DNA of 7,230 nucleotides, taken from contig CAZECW010000050.1 of assembly GCA_964510585.1 (NCBI GenBank), forward strand, positions 1-7,230, read 5' to 3'. This DNA is from an uncultured archaeon (lineage in GTDB: Archaea; Asgardarchaeota; Jordiarchaeia; Jordiarchaeales; Jordiarchaeaceae). The translations under genes and the position numbers were made by a program. The notes under the pieces are model-generated. The model made no database searches. It was given only the letters and a program-made list of their open reading frames with translations, and was not told where the DNA came from. Position 1 is the stretch's first letter, and every line of letters begins with the position of its first letter. Below, in pieces: positions 1-7,230 of this stretch.

Positions 1-222
1 TCGATTTAAGGAGTGCGGTGGCAAAAACGTATACTTCCCGTTTACGGCAAAAATATAAAGACAGTTAACAATTCGAAGGTACTGCACCGGCACCCAGAAC
101 ACCTTAAGGGGTTAGGAGAAAAGAAAAGCTTTTTCATAGCAAACATTCATACGCTTAAAGCGTCTTAGACAAATTATGAAAAATGTTTTTCGTGGGAAAT
201 AAAGCTAAGATACAGTTTTGCA

Positions 223-1239
223 TTATTGCCATTCCAGTGTCTCCAATCTTTTAAACTCTTTTATACTATCTCTAAGTGGAAGTATTAGACCTAGTTTATA
301 CATATCTTTATCATTTAACTTCCTAGTCTTTTGTATTTTTTTCCTTTTTTCCAAATTTTTTGGGAGCTGTTTTAAAAAATATATATTTGCATATAATAAA
401 ATATAAAAAATTAAATTTTTTTTGATTATAAATGAGAATATTCTTATGAAATCAAAAATTAGTGAAATAGCAAATCCTTTTATAACATTTATAAGTTCAA
501 AATTTTTTATAATATTTGCTAATCTATTCTTTTGGGTGAAAAAAATTCGGAATGGGGAACTTCGCTTACCCCATGAACCACCGTATTTGTGATAAGCAAT
601 GGAAGTAGGAACATAAATTGTCTTATATCCCCTCAGCCACGCTCTCCAGCACAGGTCTACATCCTCTAAATAAGCAAAGTAATCTTTATCAAATCCTCCC
701 AGCTCCTCAAAAATATTTTTTCTGATAAGCATGGCTGCTCCGCATACAAACCCTGCATACTTTTGTCCTTCGCTATAAGAAGACTCTTTTAAACCAAATC
801 CAATATCTAACCCTGCTCCTATTGGGGTTTTCTTACCACCTGCATGTGCTATTACATTTGGTTTATCATAAAATAGGATTTTACTACCTACCGCTACTAT
901 ATTTTTATCAACCTTAACAGCTTTAACCAATTCCTCTAACCATTTAGGGTCAACCTTTGTGTCGTCATTAAGAAATCCAACATAATCAGCATTTATCTTT
1001 TTAACAGCGTAATTGTAACCTTCAGCAAATCCATAATTTCTCTTTAATCGAATTATTTTTACCCAAGGGAAATTCTCTTTAACGTATTCGGCAGAACCAT
1101 CTGTAGATGCGTTGTCAAGTAAATAACAATCAAAATTTTTATAAGTTTGATTTGTGAGAGATTCAAAACATTCTTTTAAGTGATGCTTACCATTATGAGT
1201 GATAACAATTATCGCAACCCCATTTTTCTCTCCACTCAT
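223..1239 (-). CDS. Glycosyltransferase family 2, COG1216 / WbbL-like (rhamnosyltransferase-type GT-A fold)
   Basis: Motifs: AIIVITHNG, LDNASTDGS, NYGFAEGYN, FLNDDT (DxD-type), GAAMLIR..FEELGGFDKDYFAYLEDVDLCWRAW and YVPTSIAYH. The ORF track starts at ATG 1269. ATG 1239 (MSGEK) is preferred because GGTGTGA lies 4 nt upstream and the GT2 domain starts immediately after it. Confidence 0.92.
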   Translation of the reverse strand: MSGEKNGVAIIVITHNGKHHLKECFESLTNQTYKNFDCYLLDNASTDGSAEYVKENFPWVKIIRLKRNYGFAEGYNYAVKKINADYVGFLNDDTKVDPKWLEELVKAVKVDKNIVAVGSKILFYDKPNVIAHAGGKKTPIGAGLDIGFGLKESSYSEGQKYAGFVCGAAMLIRKNIFEELGGFDKDYFAYLEDVDLCWRAWLRGYKTIYVPTSIAYHKYGGSWGKRSSPFRIFFTQKNRLANIIKNFELINVIKGFAISLIFDFIRIFSFIIKKNLIFYILLYANIYFLKQLPKNLEKRKKIQKTRKLNDKDMYKLGLILPLRDSIKEFKRLETLEWQ

Positions 1240-1310
1240 AATCTCACACCGTCCATTTATCCAATTCATTAATGTTAAACTGTTTTAGACATAATAAGAT
1301 TTTGGGCGTT

Positions 1311-1574
1311 CTAGCCCCTGTATCTCTGAGGCGGAAGGGGGTTGAGCGGCGGCTCAAATAGTTGCTTCACATTTTTCCATAAGCTTGATGAGGTTGGAAA
1401 CTGTTCACCGAGGGCGGGTGCAGTTAAGAGAGGGGAAACTTTCTACCAGAATCGTTTTCAGGAGATTAGCTGGAGGATGATAACGGTGCTGGAGTATGTT
1501 AGGGGGATGATTACTGCCTTCTGCCATCGTAAGCAGAAGAGAAAGTATTTTGTCCATCCAAGTATCCTCCACAT
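1311..1574 (-). pseudogene. Degraded small hydrophobic ORF, possibly a DMT/EamA-like transporter remnant
   Basis: ATG 1574 has GAGGAG 4 nt upstream. The frame reads MWRILGWTKYFLFCLRWQKAVIIPLTYSSTVIILQLIS*KRFW*KVSPLLTAPALGEQF..., with internal stops at 1460-1458 and 1445-1443 and a final stop at 1313-1311. The resemblance to EamA helices is loose and judged by eye. Confidence 0.25.
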
Positions 1575-1627
1575 GGAACTCCTCTAATTACGCTAAACCG
1601 AAAAATGTTACTAAGCTCCTTGTAGAA

Positions 1628-2341
1628 TTATCTTCGCTTTTTAGCAAAAACAAGGATATACATATCATAAATTGAAAGTTTTGCACATAACCGTTCAAGT
1701 AAAATGTAGAATGTAAATAACATTTTATTAAACTTTAGATAATGTGGATTTTGGGCGGTTGTTATTGTTTTTTCGAATTTAGTTGCTTCTAGCATTTTAT
1801 TTAATATCATAGGAGAATTGCATTTAAATTTTGGCAAGAAAATGTCTTTTTCTTTAATTTCGATAAGCCTATGAAGTTTCTGGGATAAATTAAAGGGTAA
1901 TAGTCTGCTTCCTAAAAACACTAACGGATTTAAAATATTGGGAGTTGAGATAAAAAGAAAATAATTCGTTTTTAGAACCCTTCGAATCTCCCTTAAAACT
2001 TCGATCGGCTTCTCAAGATGTTCAATAACCCATTCAAGTGTAACTAAATCAAAGACAGCATTTTTAAAGGGCAGTGAGTTAAGATCTCCGATGACTTTGG
2101 CACTTACAATTTCATTATTTTTTAACTCACTTGTCAATATATCTAGTCCAACTATTGTACTTCCATTTTTCGAAAGGTGTTTACATAACTGTGAATGCAG
2201 TCCCTTTCCAGCCCCTGCATCAAGAACCAAACTGATTTTTGAAAATTTCTGGCTGATTTCTTTAATTTTCGTTTTTAAATCCTTGTAATAGGGATTATAT
2301 CTTCGGATAAATTCTTGTAATACTTCCTCACTCAAGTCCAC
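1628..2341 (-). CDS. Class I SAM-dependent methyltransferase (Methyltransf_11 type)
   Basis: GTG start. Motif I VLDAGAGKG, acidic GLDI, GDLNSLPFKNAVFDLVT, EWVIEHL and LREIRRVLK..LFISTPN. This is typical of glycan-cluster methyltransferases. Confidence 0.92.
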   Translation of the reverse strand: MDLSEEVLQEFIRRYNPYYKDLKTKIKEISQKFSKISLVLDAGAGKGLHSQLCKHLSKNGSTIVGLDILTSELKNNEIVSAKVIGDLNSLPFKNAVFDLVTLEWVIEHLEKPIEVLREIRRVLKTNYFLFISTPNILNPLVFLGSRLLPFNLSQKLHRLIEIKEKDIFLPKFKCNSPMILNKMLEATKFEKTITTAQNPHYLKFNKMLFTFYILLERLCAKLSIYDMYILVFAKKRR

Positions 2342-2390
2342 TCACTCTTTTTTAGTGCTATTAAACCATCGGCAAGTCAGTACAATTATC

Positions 2391-2396
2391 TATAAA
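2391..2396 (-). promoter_or_regulatory. Possible archaeal TATA box (TTTATA) for the methyltransferase gene
   Basis: TTTATA on the minus strand about 50 nt upstream of GTG 2341, in a 78-nt AT-rich gap. There is no clear BRE, so it could be chance. Confidence 0.2.
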
Positions 2397-2419
2397 TAAT
2401 TAAAGTGTATACCTCCTTT

Positions 2420-3865
2420 TCATCTCCTGAAGATATATTTTATGAACATTTTGCCTGAATAAAATAATCTTTTTGCTTCTTCTAAACTATGCCTCCTCGT
2501 TATTTGTTTTAGTGCTACCGGAATATATTTTAGGGAGAAATAGTACTCTTTTAAAATCTTGTCCACTCTATTAACGATTTCCTCGGAGGAAAGCCAAGGA
2601 TACGAGACTATACTTTTCTGATGTCCTTGCGCATCTAGATATTCATTTGGATCGTCTGTAACTAAATAACCCTTTTCTTTAGCCCATTCGTAAAATTCCG
2701 TTCCTGGAAAGGGAGATGCAACTGAAACTTGTAGCTGTTCAGGTTTTATCTCTTTAATAAATTTGATAGTTCTTTCTACTGTCCTTTTATTTTCACCGGG
2801 TAATCCTATTATGAAATCGGCATGTAAAAGCAATCCAGCCTTTTTTACATTTTTTACAAAGTCTTTAGCTATTTCAATATTAAATCCTTTTTTTATATTT
2901 TTCAATATTTCATTGTTTGCAGACTCGAATCCAACTATCAAAAATCTGCAATTAGCTTTTCTCATTTCTTCCATTGTTTCTAAATCAAGCGTGTCAACTC
3001 TTGCGTTACATGACCAAGTTATATCTAACTTTCTTTTGATATACTCTTTGCAGAATTCTAAAACTCTTCTTTTATTAACAGTAAAAGTATCATCTTCCAA
3101 GAAGACTTCCTTTATTTCAGGTAAATGTCCTTCGATCCACTCAAACTCATCTAAAATATTTTTAATGCTTCTAACTCTGTACTTTCTACCCATGAAGGTC
3201 TGAGGCCATGAGCAAAACGTACACTGGTACGGGCACCCTCTACCAGTGAAAATCTGAACCATTGGATAAAGAGAATAGTTAAGAAAATAGTCGTAAATGT
3301 TCAGGTGTTTTCTATAGACTTCGGATACAAATGGTAATTCATCTAGCTGCTTTGAAGTGGACAAAGGCCTATCTGGATTATGGATAATTCTATTGTCTTT
3401 TTTAAATGATATTCCTAAAACATTTTGAACGCCCTTCTTTTTTTCTATATTTTTTACTAGTTCGGCTAAGGTAAAATCATACTCATATCTTGCCACAATA
3501 TCTACGATGTTAAGCATTTTTTCTGAAAATTGAGAAGTAGGCGGTCCCACTATTGTAATCGGAGTATTAAACTCGCTTTTGATAGTGGCTGAGATGTTAA
3601 GATCATTGTTTAGACTGGTAAAGCTAGTCTCAAGAACTACCATATCTGGATCGAACTTTTTCAAATCCTTCAGAACATTGTTAACATCCCAGTTCCATGC
3701 TGGCGCATCGACAAGCCTAACATCATGACCATTGCATTCGAGAACACCAGTTGCATATGATAACCAAATTGGATAATAGAGTGTCCCGCCTCTCCCTGTA
3801 TCCTGCCACCTCATCTCTCTGCCGAAGCGTGGAAAATAAGGGGGATTGAGCAAATAGACCTTCAT
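2420..3865 (-). CDS. Cobalamin (B12)-binding radical SAM enzyme, HpnJ-like
   Basis: C211-x3-C215-x2-C218 lies within TGRGCPYQCTFCSWPQT. The N-terminal B12-binding-type domain has LLNPP, YPIWL and DAPA. Core motifs DELPFV, EDDTFT, TWSCNAR, VGFESA..ILKNIKKG, FIIGLPGE and QVSVASPFPGTEFY follow the HpnJ (TIGR03471) pattern as recalled from memory. Confidence 0.93.
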   Translation of the reverse strand: MKVYLLNPPYFPRFGREMRWQDTGRGGTLYYPIWLSYATGVLECNGHDVRLVDAPAWNWDVNNVLKDLKKFDPDMVVLETSFTSLNNDLNISATIKSEFNTPITIVGPPTSQFSEKMLNIVDIVARYEYDFTLAELVKNIEKKKGVQNVLGISFKKDNRIIHNPDRPLSTSKQLDELPFVSEVYRKHLNIYDYFLNYSLYPMVQIFTGRGCPYQCTFCSWPQTFMGRKYRVRSIKNILDEFEWIEGHLPEIKEVFLEDDTFTVNKRRVLEFCKEYIKRKLDITWSCNARVDTLDLETMEEMRKANCRFLIVGFESANNEILKNIKKGFNIEIAKDFVKNVKKAGLLLHADFIIGLPGENKRTVERTIKFIKEIKPEQLQVSVASPFPGTEFYEWAKEKGYLVTDDPNEYLDAQGHQKSIVSYPWLSSEEIVNRVDKILKEYYFSLKYIPVALKQITRRHSLEEAKRLFYSGKMFIKYIFRR

Positions 3866-4818
3866 TTGAAAACACCTCTAAGAAATCCAAGACCCCAGAG
3901 CAAACACCACGTCGTAATTAAGCCGTATATTGTAAGGAAGTTATTTCTTTTGTATTTTATACTAATATATGCGCTCATAAGGGCTATGCTAGTGCCTGCG
4001 GCAACCAAGGTATAGAAAGCAATCCAGAGAAATAGCCTATTAAAATAGGATAGACTGGTAAGAAAGAGAGTCAGAATTATAACAGAGGATGGGAGGAAGT
4101 GGAACCATTTCCCCATTTCTCTGTGTATTTTTATTGCTTGCATCCTTCCTAGTCCATAATTCCAAGCCATCTTCATAAATTTTTTCCAACTTGGTCTTCT
4201 GTAGTGATAAACTAATGCGGAAGGTGTGTACAGGATTTTATAACCTTTCTTTCTAATCCTATAATCAAGTTCTTCGTCGTCAGCTGTTATAAGTTTGGGA
4301 TTAAACCCACCTATCTCTTCTAGAACATTCTTTCTGTACATTACGTTACAAGTAGGATTGTGGTTCACTTCCCTAACCTTTCCTCCGCTTATTCCATATC
4401 TTGCTCCTACTTTGCTTAGGAGAGACAGGACTATACCTATACTTCTTCCAAAGTCTGTATCGTCTTCCGGCGTTATGTTTGGGCCACCAACTGAGGCAAT
4501 TCTCTCATCTTTAAAATGCTTTATAAGCTCTTTAATCCAATTTTTATCAACTATACAATCGGCGTCTGTAAATGCTACGAACTCGCCTCTAGCCTTTTTT
4601 TGACCGATATTTCTTGCGTAACTTATAGTGTTCCCATTTTCGAAAAAAAGTCTACACCCATATTTATTTGCTATTTTAACAGTTCCATCTACCGAATACC
4701 CATCAATTACTATTATCTCCAATTCGTCTTCTGGATAATCCAAACTACGTATAGAGTCCAAGCATTTTTCAAGTGTATCAGCATTATTTTTAGTTGGTAT
4801 AACTATCGAAACTTTCAT
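3862..4818 (-). CDS. Glycosyltransferase family 2 with C-terminal transmembrane helices (ExoA-like)
   Basis: Motifs: VSIVIPTKN, IDGYSVDGT, ARNIG, AFTDADC (DxD), GGFNPKLITADDEELDYRI and YTPSALVYHYRR. Two to three hydrophobic segments follow residue ~240. Confidence 0.93.
   Translation of the reverse strand: MKVSIVIPTKNNADTLEKCLDSIRSLDYPEDELEIIVIDGYSVDGTVKIANKYGCRLFFENGNTISYARNIGQKKARGEFVAFTDADCIVDKNWIKELIKHFKDERIASVGGPNITPEDDTDFGRSIGIVLSLLSKVGARYGISGGKVREVNHNPTCNVMYRKNVLEEIGGFNPKLITADDEELDYRIRKKGYKILYTPSALVYHYRRPSWKKFMKMAWNYGLGRMQAIKIHREMGKWFHFLPSSVIILTLFLTSLSYFNRLFLWIAFYTLVAAGTSIALMSAYISIKYKRNNFLTIYGLITTWCLLWGLGFLRGVFK
3873..3878 (-). promoter_or_regulatory. Ribosome-binding site (GAGGTG) of the radical SAM gene
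   Basis: GAGGTG lies 7 nt upstream of ATG 3865, inside the 3' end of the upstream GT2. The GT2 stop and this start overlap as ATGA (3865-3862). Confidence 0.6.
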
Positions 4819-4854
4819 TTCGCGACTAATCCCCTCTTTAGTTTACTTATAAGT

Positions 4855-5655
4855 TCATTTTTCATTTTTGCAAAAACGTAACTTTATCATAAGTTTTAGG
4901 TGTCTGTATCCGTCTTTTATTGGATTCAGTTTGGAGTTTGTGCCTCTTCTTGGGTGGTATGTTATTGGTGTTTCCACAATTTTTAAACGTTTTTTTGCTG
5001 CTTTAATTATCATTTCTGATGCGAATTCCATTCCTGTTGATGTTGCTTTTATTTTTTCCCATGCCTTTTTTGTTATTGCTCTCATTCCGCAGTGCATATC
5101 TGATATTCTTGTTCCGAATAGTATGTTTGCAATGAGGGTGAGGAGGGGGTTGCCAACGTATCTGTGTAGTTTTGGCATGGCTCCGGGGAGAATTTTGCCT
5201 TTGAGTCTGGTTCCCATCACAATGTCTGTGTTGCCGTTTTTTATTATCTTTATGAGTTTGGATGTTTCTTCTAGGTCGTATGTACCGTCTGCATCAGCCA
5301 TAACTATGATTTTTCCTCTGGCTTCTTTTATTCCGGATAGGTATGCATTGCCGTAGCCTTTTTTGGAGGGATTTACTATTTTTGCTCCGAGGCCTTTTGC
5401 AATTATGGGAGAGCAGTCGGTGGAGTTGTCTGCAACTATTATTTCGCCCTGTATTCTTAGTTTTTTGAATACGTTTTTGATTTTGGTGATGCATTCTCCT
5501 ATTGTTGGCTCTTCATTTAGGCAGGGTAGCACTACTGAAACGTCAATTTCTGTTTTTTCTATTTCGTTTAGTATGGTGATAGGTGTGTAATAGGGATTGG
5601 TCGTGGTGCACTGCTTGTTAGGGATTTGGATTCCTTGAAATTTATGTGCCTCCAA
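4855..5655 (-). CDS. Glycosyltransferase family 2, DPM1-like (polyprenol/dolichol-phosphate hexosyltransferase type)
   Basis: Motifs: VSVVLPCLNEE, ADNSTD, GYGNAY, MADADGTYD, VMGTR, YVGNPLL, SDMHCGMRA, GMEFASEM, ETPITYHPR and SKLNPIKDG. The TTG start has GGAGAG upstream. The exact start is uncertain because about 35 aa precede the domain. Confidence 0.92.
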   Translation of the reverse strand: MEAHKFQGIQIPNKQCTTTNPYYTPITILNEIEKTEIDVSVVLPCLNEEPTIGECITKIKNVFKKLRIQGEIIVADNSTDCSPIIAKGLGAKIVNPSKKGYGNAYLSGIKEARGKIIVMADADGTYDLEETSKLIKIIKNGNTDIVMGTRLKGKILPGAMPKLHRYVGNPLLTLIANILFGTRISDMHCGMRAITKKAWEKIKATSTGMEFASEMIIKAAKKRLKIVETPITYHPRRGTNSKLNPIKDGYRHLKLMIKLRFCKNEK

Positions 5656-5678
5656 TTAAGGCCACTCTCCAACTTGGG

Positions 5679-5915
5679 TTACGCTAATACTTTAGGGGTT
5701 GATTCTGCGTAGCTGCCTGAGCCTACCTTTATGTTCTCGTCGGGTTGGGGTATATCCAGCTCTTTTATGAATACCTTTGACATGTTTGTGTCGTAGTGTT
5801 GGCCGGAGTGTATGAAGGCGAGGTCTACATCAGAATACCTTTGAAGGGCTTTTATTACGGGCGCCATTTTTATGATTTCGGGTCTTGTTCCCGCAACACA
5901 GAGGACGCTTACCAC
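5679..5915 (-). pseudogene. wecB: 3'-truncated UDP-N-acetylglucosamine 2-epimerase (non-hydrolysing), N-terminal ~78 aa only
   Basis: GTRPEIIKMAPVIKAL, HSGQHYD..M..FIKEL.IPQPDEN and VGSGSYAEST are the hallmark WecB N-terminus. GTG 5915 has GGGGGT 4 nt upstream. TAA comes after 78 codons versus about 360-380 aa expected, and none of the three frames continues recognisably. Confidence 0.88.
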
Positions 5916-6278
5916 GTTTACCCCCTTCCAGTCACGTTTTCCCCTATTTCTTAGGGAGGCTTTTTTTCGCTCCATTTTTTGGGGCTTTTTCCCCTTTTCT
6001 TTATGTCTGTTGGCAGGCTGGGTGTTTCTTTTCGGGTTTGGATTGGTTTCCTCAGCTTTTGCGCTTCCAGATTTTGGTGCTGTTTTGGGTGCCTTTTAGT
6101 TTCTTTTTGTTTGTCTGAATATTTATGTTTTTGGATTTGCGACATTTTGGCTCTTTTTGTTTTTTTGTTTCTTGTTTTTGGAACCATGTTTGGTTTGTGT
6201 GGCTTCTTTTTTCTATAATTTTTTGGTGGTTGGTGGAGTATTTTCGTATGGGTTGCTGAAAAATTGTTTTTTTGGTTT

Positions 6279-6869
6279 TTAGAGGTATCCTTGTTGTTTT
6301 AGGTGGTTTTCTAGTATTTTTGTTATGGTTGTTTCTATGGTTTTGTGGTTTTTGTTTGGGTTTGTTTTTGACTGGTATTTTTGGAGTGCTTGGATTATTT
6401 TGTTTGGGAGGACTAGTTGGATGCGGTTTTTTGTTTCTGTTTTTGTTAGGTTTAGGGCTTGTTGTGGGGTTATTTTGTTTCCTTGTTTGTGTTGTGTTCT
6501 TAGGGTTTTGCATAGTTTTGTTGTGGGGATGTTGTTTTGGGTGATGGTTTTTAGGATTTCTGTTTCTATTTGTTGTTGGTTTTGGTTTGTGGCTATTTCT
6601 CTTGCTGTGGCTTGGATTTGTATGGTTGTGTTTCTGGTTAGTTTTTTGGGGTTTATGTCCAATTCTTGGACGTCGCGTTGGTGGCGTGTTAGGAAGTCTT
6701 GGTGTGCTATGTAGGATGCTACTGCTTTTCTTTTGCTTTCTGGGTTTTTTCCTCCTATTCCGGAGGTTTCGCCGATTTTTTGGTATGTCCAGTCGGGGTG
6801 GCGCTGCTTGACCCGCCAGAGGAACTGGGATATTTCGGTATCAGACAGATTTTTTCTGTTATAGTTTTC
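6279..6869 (-). CDS. C-terminal two-thirds of a ParB-family protein, in the -1 frame (ENxxR motif, HTH, RHH-like C-terminus)
   Basis: The track ORF 6279..6662 extends stop-free upstream to a TGA at 6911-6909. From 6869 it reads ENYNRKNLSDTEISQFLWRVKQRHPDWTYQKIGETSGIGGKNPESKRKAVASYI...LDINPKK. The frame has no ATG/GTG/TTG between 6908 and 6663. Confidence 0.75.
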   Translation of the reverse strand, partial: ENYNRKNLSDTEISQFLWRVKQRHPDWTYQKIGETSGIGGKNPESKRKAVASYIAHQDFLTRHQRDVQELDINPKKLTRNTTIQIQATAREIATNQNQQQIETEILKTITQNNIPTTKLCKTLRTQHKQGNKITPQQALNLTKTETKNRIQLVLPNKIIQALQKYQSKTNPNKNHKTIETTITKILENHLKQQGYL

Positions 6870-7204
6870 TTTAAAACTAGTACTTCTGCTTCTTCGGGCG
6901 TGAGATCCTCAGTATAGTCTACGTCGATGTATTCTTGCTTGTTTAGCACTGCGGCTCTGATTCTTCTCCATCCCTGCACCGCAAAAATTTCATCGCCGCC
7001 ATCACCGCTGTCTGTGAACTTTTTGAAGGAGCAGACTAGTGGGGTGTGGATTATGCCGTCTCTTTTTATGCTTTCGGTAAGTTCTTCAACGTCTGCCCAC
7101 CCGGATTTTCTGCCCTCGCTCTTCGTCCAGTCAAGCTCGCCTCGGGGAGTGGAGAACGTTTCATAATCATGCTCCCCAAGTTTTATGTGGAAACGCCTGA
7201 CCAT
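6755..7204 (-). CDS. ParB/RepB/Spo0J-family N-terminal (ParBc, CTP-binding) domain; 5' part of a frameshifted gene
   Basis: EELTESIKRDGIIHTPLV, the Arg patch AVQGWRRIRAA (GxRRxRA) and LTPEEAEVLVL match ParB. Similarity stops at 6869 and the zero-frame tail is Ser/Gly-rich. The frame is also open from 7204 to the window edge (RRIKIDPK), so the true start may lie further upstream. Confidence 0.85.
   Translation of the reverse strand: MVRRFHIKLGEHDYETFSTPRGELDWTKSEGRKSGWADVEELTESIKRDGIIHTPLVCSFKKFTDSGDGGDEIFAVQGWRRIRAAVLNKQEYIDVDYTEDLTPEEAEVLVLKKTITEKICLIPKYPSSSGGSSSATPTGHTKKSAKPPE
6869..6875 (-). other. Frameshift site: in-phase slippery heptamer T TTA AAG (or a 1-nt deletion)
   Basis: The zero frame reads GTT TTA AAG AAA. 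A -1 shift gives V-L-K-E-N-Y-N-R-K-N-L and restores the ParB ENxxRxxL motif. Confidence 0.6.
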
Positions 7205-7230
7205 TTTGGGGTCAATTTTTATTCTTCTCC

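Follow-up and report, generated by a model that had tools for sequence, protein, structure and literature searches.

The window analysed here is a whole contig of 7230 bp (C50) from the 3.78-Mb metagenome-assembled genome (MAG) of an Asgard archaeon, which is 96% complete; the same stretch is present in hot-spring metagenomes, with no RNA data set listed among the sequencing runs that contain it. All genes of the window lie on the minus strand. Among them, a membrane glycosyltransferase of family 2 (GT2), here termed P0001, is followed by a radical S-adenosylmethionine (SAM) enzyme with a B12 domain, P0002. We consider it probable that this pair is a horizontally acquired, co-inherited sugar-tailoring module, placed in the variable part of a cell-surface glycan locus (probably an N-glycan locus), that would remodel a lipid-linked sugar. 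The pair comprises the following features:

3862–4818, minus strand: membrane GT2 P0001, 318 amino acids (Pfam Glycos_transf_2, 109.5 bits; Glyco_tranf_2_3, 67.8 bits)
2420–3865, minus strand: HpnJ-like class B (B12-domain) radical SAM enzyme P0002, 481 amino acids, predicted soluble
3862–3878, minus strand: coupling signals, with ATGA at 3865–3862 and GAGGTG at 3878–3873

The stop codon of P0001 (TGA, 3864–3862) overlaps the start codon of P0002 (ATG, 3865–3863) to form ATGA, and the Shine-Dalgarno-like GAGGTG, which occurs only twice on the minus strand of the 7230 nt, sits 7 nt before that ATG. An earlier interpretation made from the letters of the window (the sequence-only reading) had proposed translational coupling from these two signals, both of which are confirmed. 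The comparison with related loci extends the observation. It covers 26 loci of the family: the window itself, seven loci of public assemblies and 18 found in a sample of 401 genomes from the phylum that contains the Archaeoglobaceae. In 18 of the 26, a P0001-type GT2 gene immediately precedes the radical SAM gene on the same strand; in 21 it is found within three genes. Eleven of these 18 loci possess the 4-nt ATGA overlap, and in 16 the gap does not exceed 20 nt; because of this recurrence, the overlap in the window cannot be ascribed to chance. Identities to the window pair co-vary between the GT2 and the radical SAM enzyme (rho 0.94, n = 17, a descriptive value only, as the loci are related), and the GT2 and radical SAM families coincide in taxonomic spread and share contigs. 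Fusions are found within the wider HpnJ-like clade described below, joining radical SAM to GT2 (P0138), a family 4 glycosyltransferase (GT4) to radical SAM (P0156), and radical SAM to Methyltransf_11 (P0127), while another member of that clade shares a 4-nt overlap with a downstream GT2. The GT2 and the radical SAM enzyme are a real, co-inherited and often translationally coupled unit. A prediction of the P0001/P0002 complex with two alignments (A1, A2) gave a score of 0.00, which is read neither for nor against contact.

Residues 1–479 of P0002 align to positions 1–468 of the 472 in the HpnJ model (TIGR03471), with a score of 452.6 bits and an E-value of 8.6e-136. The likeness to HpnJ along the whole length, claimed in the sequence-only reading, therefore holds as a resemblance: the score lies below the equivalog cut-off of 577.6, and true HpnJ representatives reach 740–818 bits. 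BchE is the next-best named family (171 bits), followed by PhpK (152), AprD4 (112.5), MJ_0865/MgmA (111) and HpnR (105). HpnJ, rather than any named class B methylase model, is the closest characterised relative (452.6 versus at most 171 bits). Pfam assigns a Radical_SAM domain (PF04055, 94.8 bits) and, marginally, a B12-binding domain (PF02310, 33.7 bits with a cut-off of 32.1), and a CxxxCxxC motif is present at residues 211–218 (C211, C215, C218). The AlphaFold model has a mean predicted local distance difference test (pLDDT) value of 86.9 and adopts the class B fold, with AprD4, OxsB, TsrM, MgmA, CysS and TokK as its nearest structures. These class B matches have template modelling (TM) scores of 0.65–0.73, and that of AprD4 is 0.69–0.73. 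AprD4 is also the best sequence match in the PDB (E 7.5e-27), where no chain exceeds 97 bits. P0002 can thus be assigned, from its predicted B12-binding domain, its radical SAM core with CxxxCxxC and its modelled fold, to the class B radical SAM enzymes. Since the nearest folds mix methylases and non-methylases, the fold leaves the chemistry unsettled.

The family to which P0002 belongs is large. A word-indexed search returned hundreds of full-length homologues of 63–85% identity, and 7176 proteins passed E ≤ 1e-30 in an exhaustive HMMER search of 1.84 billion representatives. Members come from many archaeal phyla, and from a few bacteria, and are 50–85% identical to P0002. Archaeal sources include Altiarchaeales, Methanosarcinales/ANME-2, Methanophagales, Bathyarchaeia, Thermoproteota, Nitrososphaeria, Brockarchaeota, Hodarchaeota, Archaeoglobaceae and Methanothermobacter tenebrarum; the few bacterial homologues come from WOR-3 and Petrotogales. 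P0002 carries all 82 family-invariant residues. Trees of the best representatives were calculated with FastTree (115 rows) and IQ-TREE (66 rows), from sets that did not include the Cds, MoeK5, Fom3 and PtmC sequences. In both, the P0002 clade has 100% support and is separate from true HpnJ. It is one of four subclades in an unresolved group (SH-like approximate likelihood ratio test, 85), another being true HpnJ (P0141, P0145, P0168), and the surrounding HpnJ-like clade (support 99) comprises proteins that score 285–470 bits to the HpnJ model. Identity between P0002 and true HpnJ is 31–38% over the full length. By sequence, P0002 is a member of an archaeal HpnJ-like family, a sibling clade of true HpnJ, and it is not HpnJ itself, as both the score below the cut-off and the separate clade indicate. 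The phylogeny that had been proposed with HpnJ, Cds and the class B methylases is in this way answered for HpnJ, in two trees.

Two further observations concern radical SAM proteins of this kind. The HpnJ-like relatives P0126, P0131 and P0135 contain inteins with LAGLIDADG domains that separate the B12 domain from the radical SAM core. The MAG itself encodes six further B12-domain radical SAM paralogues of 188–231 bits to HpnJ, located on contigs C106 (two), C109 (two), C94 and C93.

P0001 has about three C-terminal transmembrane helices (segments 238–313; the helices of the model span 211–317). Its AlphaFold model (pLDDT 92.7) returned the mannosyltransferase PcManGT (PDB code 6yv7) as the top Foldseek match, followed by BcsA and hyaluronan synthase, and D85 and D87 of the DxD motif, like D181, do not vary among 48 homologues. 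The model identifies P0001 as a membrane GT2 with a predicted minimal cellulose-synthase-like (PcManGT-like) fold, consisting of a GT-A domain, an interface helix and the C-terminal transmembrane helices. The best NCBIfam match is MftF-like, with EpsD-like proteins also among the best named relatives. An assignment as the mycofactocin glycosyltransferase MftF (TIGR03965) was rejected, as the score of 151.5 bits falls short of the cut-off of 280 and neither the window nor the related loci contain mft genes; an arsenosugar function was discarded on account of a score below the cut-off and missing partner genes. The parallel drawn earlier with HpnI fails for this protein, which reaches only 23.4 bits to a model with a cut-off of 310. 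Cysteines 19, 55, 88 and 157 are invariant in the 48 close GT2 homologues. A metal site at these four residues was considered and dropped, since more distant partner GT2s have Arg or Ser there.

The remainder of the window contains the following features:

6755–7204, minus strand: open reading frame (ORF) of 149 amino acids without a family match in Pfam or NCBIfam
5976–6750: low-complexity stretch with minus-strand ORFs rich in K, N, P, T and Q in several frames
5679–5975, minus strand: N-terminal fragment of WecB, an ORF of 98 amino acids (TIGR00236 positions 1–75 of 366, 69 bits)
4855–5655, minus strand: AglJ/dolichyl-phosphate-hexose-synthase-like GT2 (TIGR04182 AglJ, 151.6 bits; NF041391 Dol-P hexose transferase, 122.5 bits; both below cut-off)
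1628–2341, minus strand: class I SAM-dependent methyltransferase (Methyltransf_11, 58.9 bits), 78 nt downstream of the P0002 gene
223–1269, minus strand: second GT2, broadly of P0001 type (Glycos_transf_2, 107.5 bits), clustering with P0001-type GT2s

In the 26 related loci, a GT4 gene lies directly downstream of the pair in 11 and within five genes in about 19; in the window, the second GT2 fills this slot. An AglJ-like GT2 is found upstream in about ten loci and DUF2206, a large membrane protein, downstream in nine. Four loci (L030, L031, L033, L051) contain a Polysacc_synt flippase, one of which (L031) also has AglB/STT3, and methyltransferase genes are near the pair in L030, L037 and L042. 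The archaeal core order is AglJ-like GT2, GT2, radical SAM and GT4, with DUF2206 in addition. The genome of the window carries GGGP synthase and one AglB.

Several features of the window stand apart from the pair. The WecB (UDP-GlcNAc 2-epimerase) fragment encodes only the first ~75 residues of the enzyme, the remainder cannot fit before the next gene, and the region is kept at 73–79% DNA identity in same-genus genomes. The plus strand of the low-complexity stretch is extremely rich in T and G, with an AT skew as low as -0.70 and a GC skew of +0.52; the stretch lies downstream of the 149-amino-acid ORF, and one same-genus genome retains the region with 84% identity. An intergenic element at 1474–1605, which separates the methyltransferase gene from that of the second GT2, matches five other contigs of the genome (78% over 133 nt) and same-genus genomes at 66–72%; neither Rfam nor a tRNA search gave a hit to it. 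Both kinds of scan were likewise empty for the whole window, and a scan of the window for sigma-70 promoters remained at chance level, the sigma-70 model not being meaningful for an archaeal host.

The distribution of the pair in the host lineage is patchy. The P0002-type radical SAM gene was not found at E ≤ 1e-100 in any of 40 relatives, among them five genomes of the same genus, and only one of 300 other genomes of the phylum has it at E ≤ 1e-120; with 59% identity, this copy is less similar than those of other phyla. In the phylum containing the Archaeoglobaceae, 19 of 401 genomes carry the gene. From the AglJ-like gene onward (about 4873–7228) the DNA is 74–84% identical in same-genus genomes, while positions 1–4870 have no counterpart there. 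The AglJ-like GT2 gene is therefore a conserved anchor outside the acquired cassette, and downstream of it GDP-mannose 4,6-dehydratase, epimerases and other glycosyltransferases replace the cassette in the same-genus genomes. The G+C content of the cassette is 35.5%, compared to 41.7% for the genome, with a typical tetranucleotide profile, and genus-specific repeats flank the cassette. A contig from another study spans 4820–5119 with zero differences, so the cassette junction is real and not an assembly artefact. Contamination or a chimera was considered in view of the G+C content of the contig (37% against 41.7%, 1.4th percentile) and rejected, given the typical tetranucleotide profile and the right third common to same-genus genomes; the flanking repeats and the bridging contig exclude it further. 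The cassette is a horizontally acquired, swappable unit in a hypervariable surface-glycan locus.

A repeat of ~80 bp at 120–203 recurs in the host genome, with 27 matches spread over 19 contigs and in places arranged in tandem; genomes of the same genus contain dozens of matches. Exactly at this repeat, the contigs from three metagenome runs stop or depart from the window sequence (loose ends at 149–203), which probably explains the contig end.

Taken together, the setting is that of a variable surface-glycan or N-glycosylation locus. Because an AglJ-like GT2, GT4, a flippase, DUF2206 and AglB occur in the loci of relatives, it favours a lipid-linked glycan over the head group of a core membrane lipid; of the two kinds of target named in the sequence-only reading, the glycan is supported by locus context and the membrane-lipid head group is disfavoured. 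In the pathway that we propose, the AglJ-like enzyme would charge dolichyl phosphate with a hexose. At the cytoplasmic face, the membrane GT2 would then add a sugar to a lipid-linked intermediate, most likely the dolichyl-phosphate-linked sugar made by the AglJ-like enzyme. The soluble B12-domain radical SAM enzyme would abstract a hydrogen from the sugar placed by the GT2 and remodel that sugar, and the methyltransferase and the second GT2 (GT4 in most relatives) would finish or extend the product.

The nature of the remodelling is less certain than its setting. An HpnJ-type ring contraction from pyranose to cyclopentitol is tentatively favoured because of the homology to HpnJ, and we regard it as plausible but short of probable; C-methylation is a serious if rather unlikely candidate, and what is left of the odds falls to dehydration, epimerisation or other radical chemistry. 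The contraction to a carbocycle suggested earlier thus keeps the support of the placement beside HpnJ, but it extends a function for HpnJ that was itself derived from a knockout, with C-methylation and dehydration as competing candidates. The wider proposition, that many anaerobic or thermophilic archaea, this Asgard strain included, turn a lipid-linked hexose into an ether-linked carbocyclic (cyclopentitol) glycan unit by such a contraction, is somewhat more doubtful.

A number of points weigh against the proposed pathway. Both GT4 and DUF2206, companions of the pair elsewhere, are missing from the window, and the whole genome has no DUF2206, so that the local pathway may differ; the contig also stops 220 nt past the last gene. 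Dolichyl phosphate is not distinguished by the present evidence from another lipid or a soluble glycoside as acceptor. Members of the family are known from sequence and predicted structure alone, and the nearest solved structure to P0002, AprD4, is that of a diol dehydratase. What is known of HpnJ comes solely from a knockout (PMC13459092, PMC9092360), and at a stringent threshold the enzyme groups with the methylases Fom3 and MoeK5 in a similarity network from the literature (PMC9204698). Homology to HpnJ therefore does not fix the chemistry.

The network also lends weight to the strongest alternative, in which the radical SAM enzyme is a cobalamin-dependent C-methyltransferase that would place a methyl branch on the GT2-attached sugar of the lipid-linked intermediate. 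Methylases form the majority of characterised class B enzymes, and the P0002 fold is about equally close to the methylases TsrM, MgmA, CysS and TokK and to the non-methylases. MoeK5 and GenK are class B radical SAM enzymes of C-methylation, and MoeK5 is proposed to C-methylate the first lipid-linked sugar of moenomycin. The position beside HpnJ in both trees speaks against a methylase, though with the MoeK5 and Fom3 sequences outside the sampling, as do the PhpK, MJ_0865/MgmA and HpnR scores, which are far below that of HpnJ.

We consider it unlikely that archaeal membrane lipids (archaeol or glycerol dialkyl glycerol tetraether) receive a calditol-like cyclitol head group directly from the pair. 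The GT2 is membrane-embedded, and the calditol model of glycosyl transfer, radical SAM contraction and second glycosyl transfer (PMC9385802) matches the usual order of GT2, radical SAM and GT4. However, the cassette occupies a strain-variable glycan locus and is absent from all five same-genus genomes, the radical SAM gene is rare in both archaeal phyla surveyed (19 of 401 and one of 300 genomes), and flippase, DUF2206 and AglB adjoin the pair in relatives. The calditol synthase Cds, on which the head-group parallel had been built, is the product of saci_1489 of Sulfolobus acidocaldarius (PMC13459092). The control genome of this organism contains at least one match to the HpnJ model at E ≤ 1e-40 and none at E ≤ 1e-80, compared to 8.6e-136 for P0002, and Cds can therefore not belong to the close clade of P0002. 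Close homology between the two is not supported; judged from this genome search, Cds would be at most a distant relative, and the parallel an analogy of pathway logic.

It is a little less likely again that P0002 is an AprD4-type radical dehydratase, or another radical sugar enzyme that neither methylates nor contracts (deoxygenation or epimerisation). AprD4, the substrate of which is the sugar paromamine, is the best PDB match by both sequence and fold, and the Pfam B12-binding score is marginal, as given above. Against this, the NCBIfam AprD4 model scores 112.5 bits where HpnJ scores 452.6, and the conserved neighbourhood shows no partner reductase similar to AprD3.

The reading as a true HpnI/HpnJ pair of the hopanoid cyclitol-ether pathway, for which nothing speaks but the domain architecture and the likeness to HpnJ over the full length, is already refuted by the sub-threshold scores of both proteins, by the genome, which has no match to squalene-hopene cyclase (TIGR01507) and no YdjC/HpnK in the window or in the rest of the MAG, by the different content of a true HpnJ locus, and by a host that is an archaeon with GGGP synthase and AglB. 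The absence of hopanoid genes and HpnK from the window, stated in the sequence-only reading, is thereby confirmed and extends to the 96%-complete genome; the host is not a bacterium with a full hpn pathway, and a non-hopanoid use is supported because that pathway is absent.

In the literature on DUF2206, on HpnJ with polysaccharide and on B12 radical SAM enzymes in archaeal N-glycosylation, we found no published description of the GT2–radical SAM module. New here are the archaeal core gene order, the lack of a close link to Cds, the fusions and the history of cassette swapping in an Asgard genus. To our knowledge, no one has yet reconstituted the ring contraction by HpnJ, and the wider HpnJ family is essentially unannotated. 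The P0002 family is large, highly conserved and, by prediction, soluble, is tightly tied to one membrane GT2 and occurs in at least one named species with a near-complete genome, Methanothermobacter tenebrarum; radical chemistry on lipid-linked sugars thus becomes directly testable. The cassette history also means that horizontal transfer lets an Asgard archaeon exchange cassettes of surface-glycan genes, much as bacteria exchange their O-antigen loci. Should the cyclopentitol reading be true, archaeal glycans would gain their first known carbasugar, and the family would offer a tractable soluble enzyme with which to establish the HpnJ/Cds-type reaction in vitro.

The sugar-tailoring module can be compared with several known systems. 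OxsB, which catalyses a ring contraction, and the diol dehydratase AprD4 share the fold of P0002 and, like MoeK5 and GenK, perform radical chemistry on carbohydrate-like substrates. None of the four is known to have a membrane GT2 as its partner within a glycan locus, and the kinship in sequence is distant, as the PDB scores indicate. For P0001, the best match both in structure and in PDB sequence is PcManGT of Pyrobaculum calidifontis, annotated in the PDB as a mannosyltransferase and implicated in N-glycan assembly. The two proteins share the GT-A domain with a few C-terminal transmembrane helices in a minimal cellulose-synthase-like layout, but identity is only ~20%, and PcManGT has no reported radical SAM partner. 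Cds is likewise a radical SAM enzyme, presumed to work on a hexose attached to a lipid after one glycosyltransfer step and before a second (PMC9385802, PMC13459092), a sequence of events that the order of glycosyltransferase, radical SAM and glycosyltransferase in P0002 relatives mirrors. Homologues of Cds are tied to acidic habitats and core lipids, whereas the P0002 family is sporadic and occurs in glycan loci. The sugar remodelled by the radical SAM enzyme of the HpnI/HpnK/HpnJ pathway is likewise provided by a glycosyltransferase (PMC13459092). The true HpnJ locus that we examined contains a GT21-type GT2, LPG_synthase_TM and YdjC, none of which is present in the window. The P0002 locus differs further in its archaeal host, its lack of a deacetylase and hopanoid pathway, its placement in a variable surface-glycan locus, and a partner GT2 that is MftF/EpsD/PcManGT-like rather than GT21/HpnI. 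What P0002 has in common with HpnJ, at a score below the cut-off, is the ~480-residue architecture of B12 domain and radical SAM core, the position in a sibling clade and the pairing with a membrane GT2 that gives the sugar substrate.

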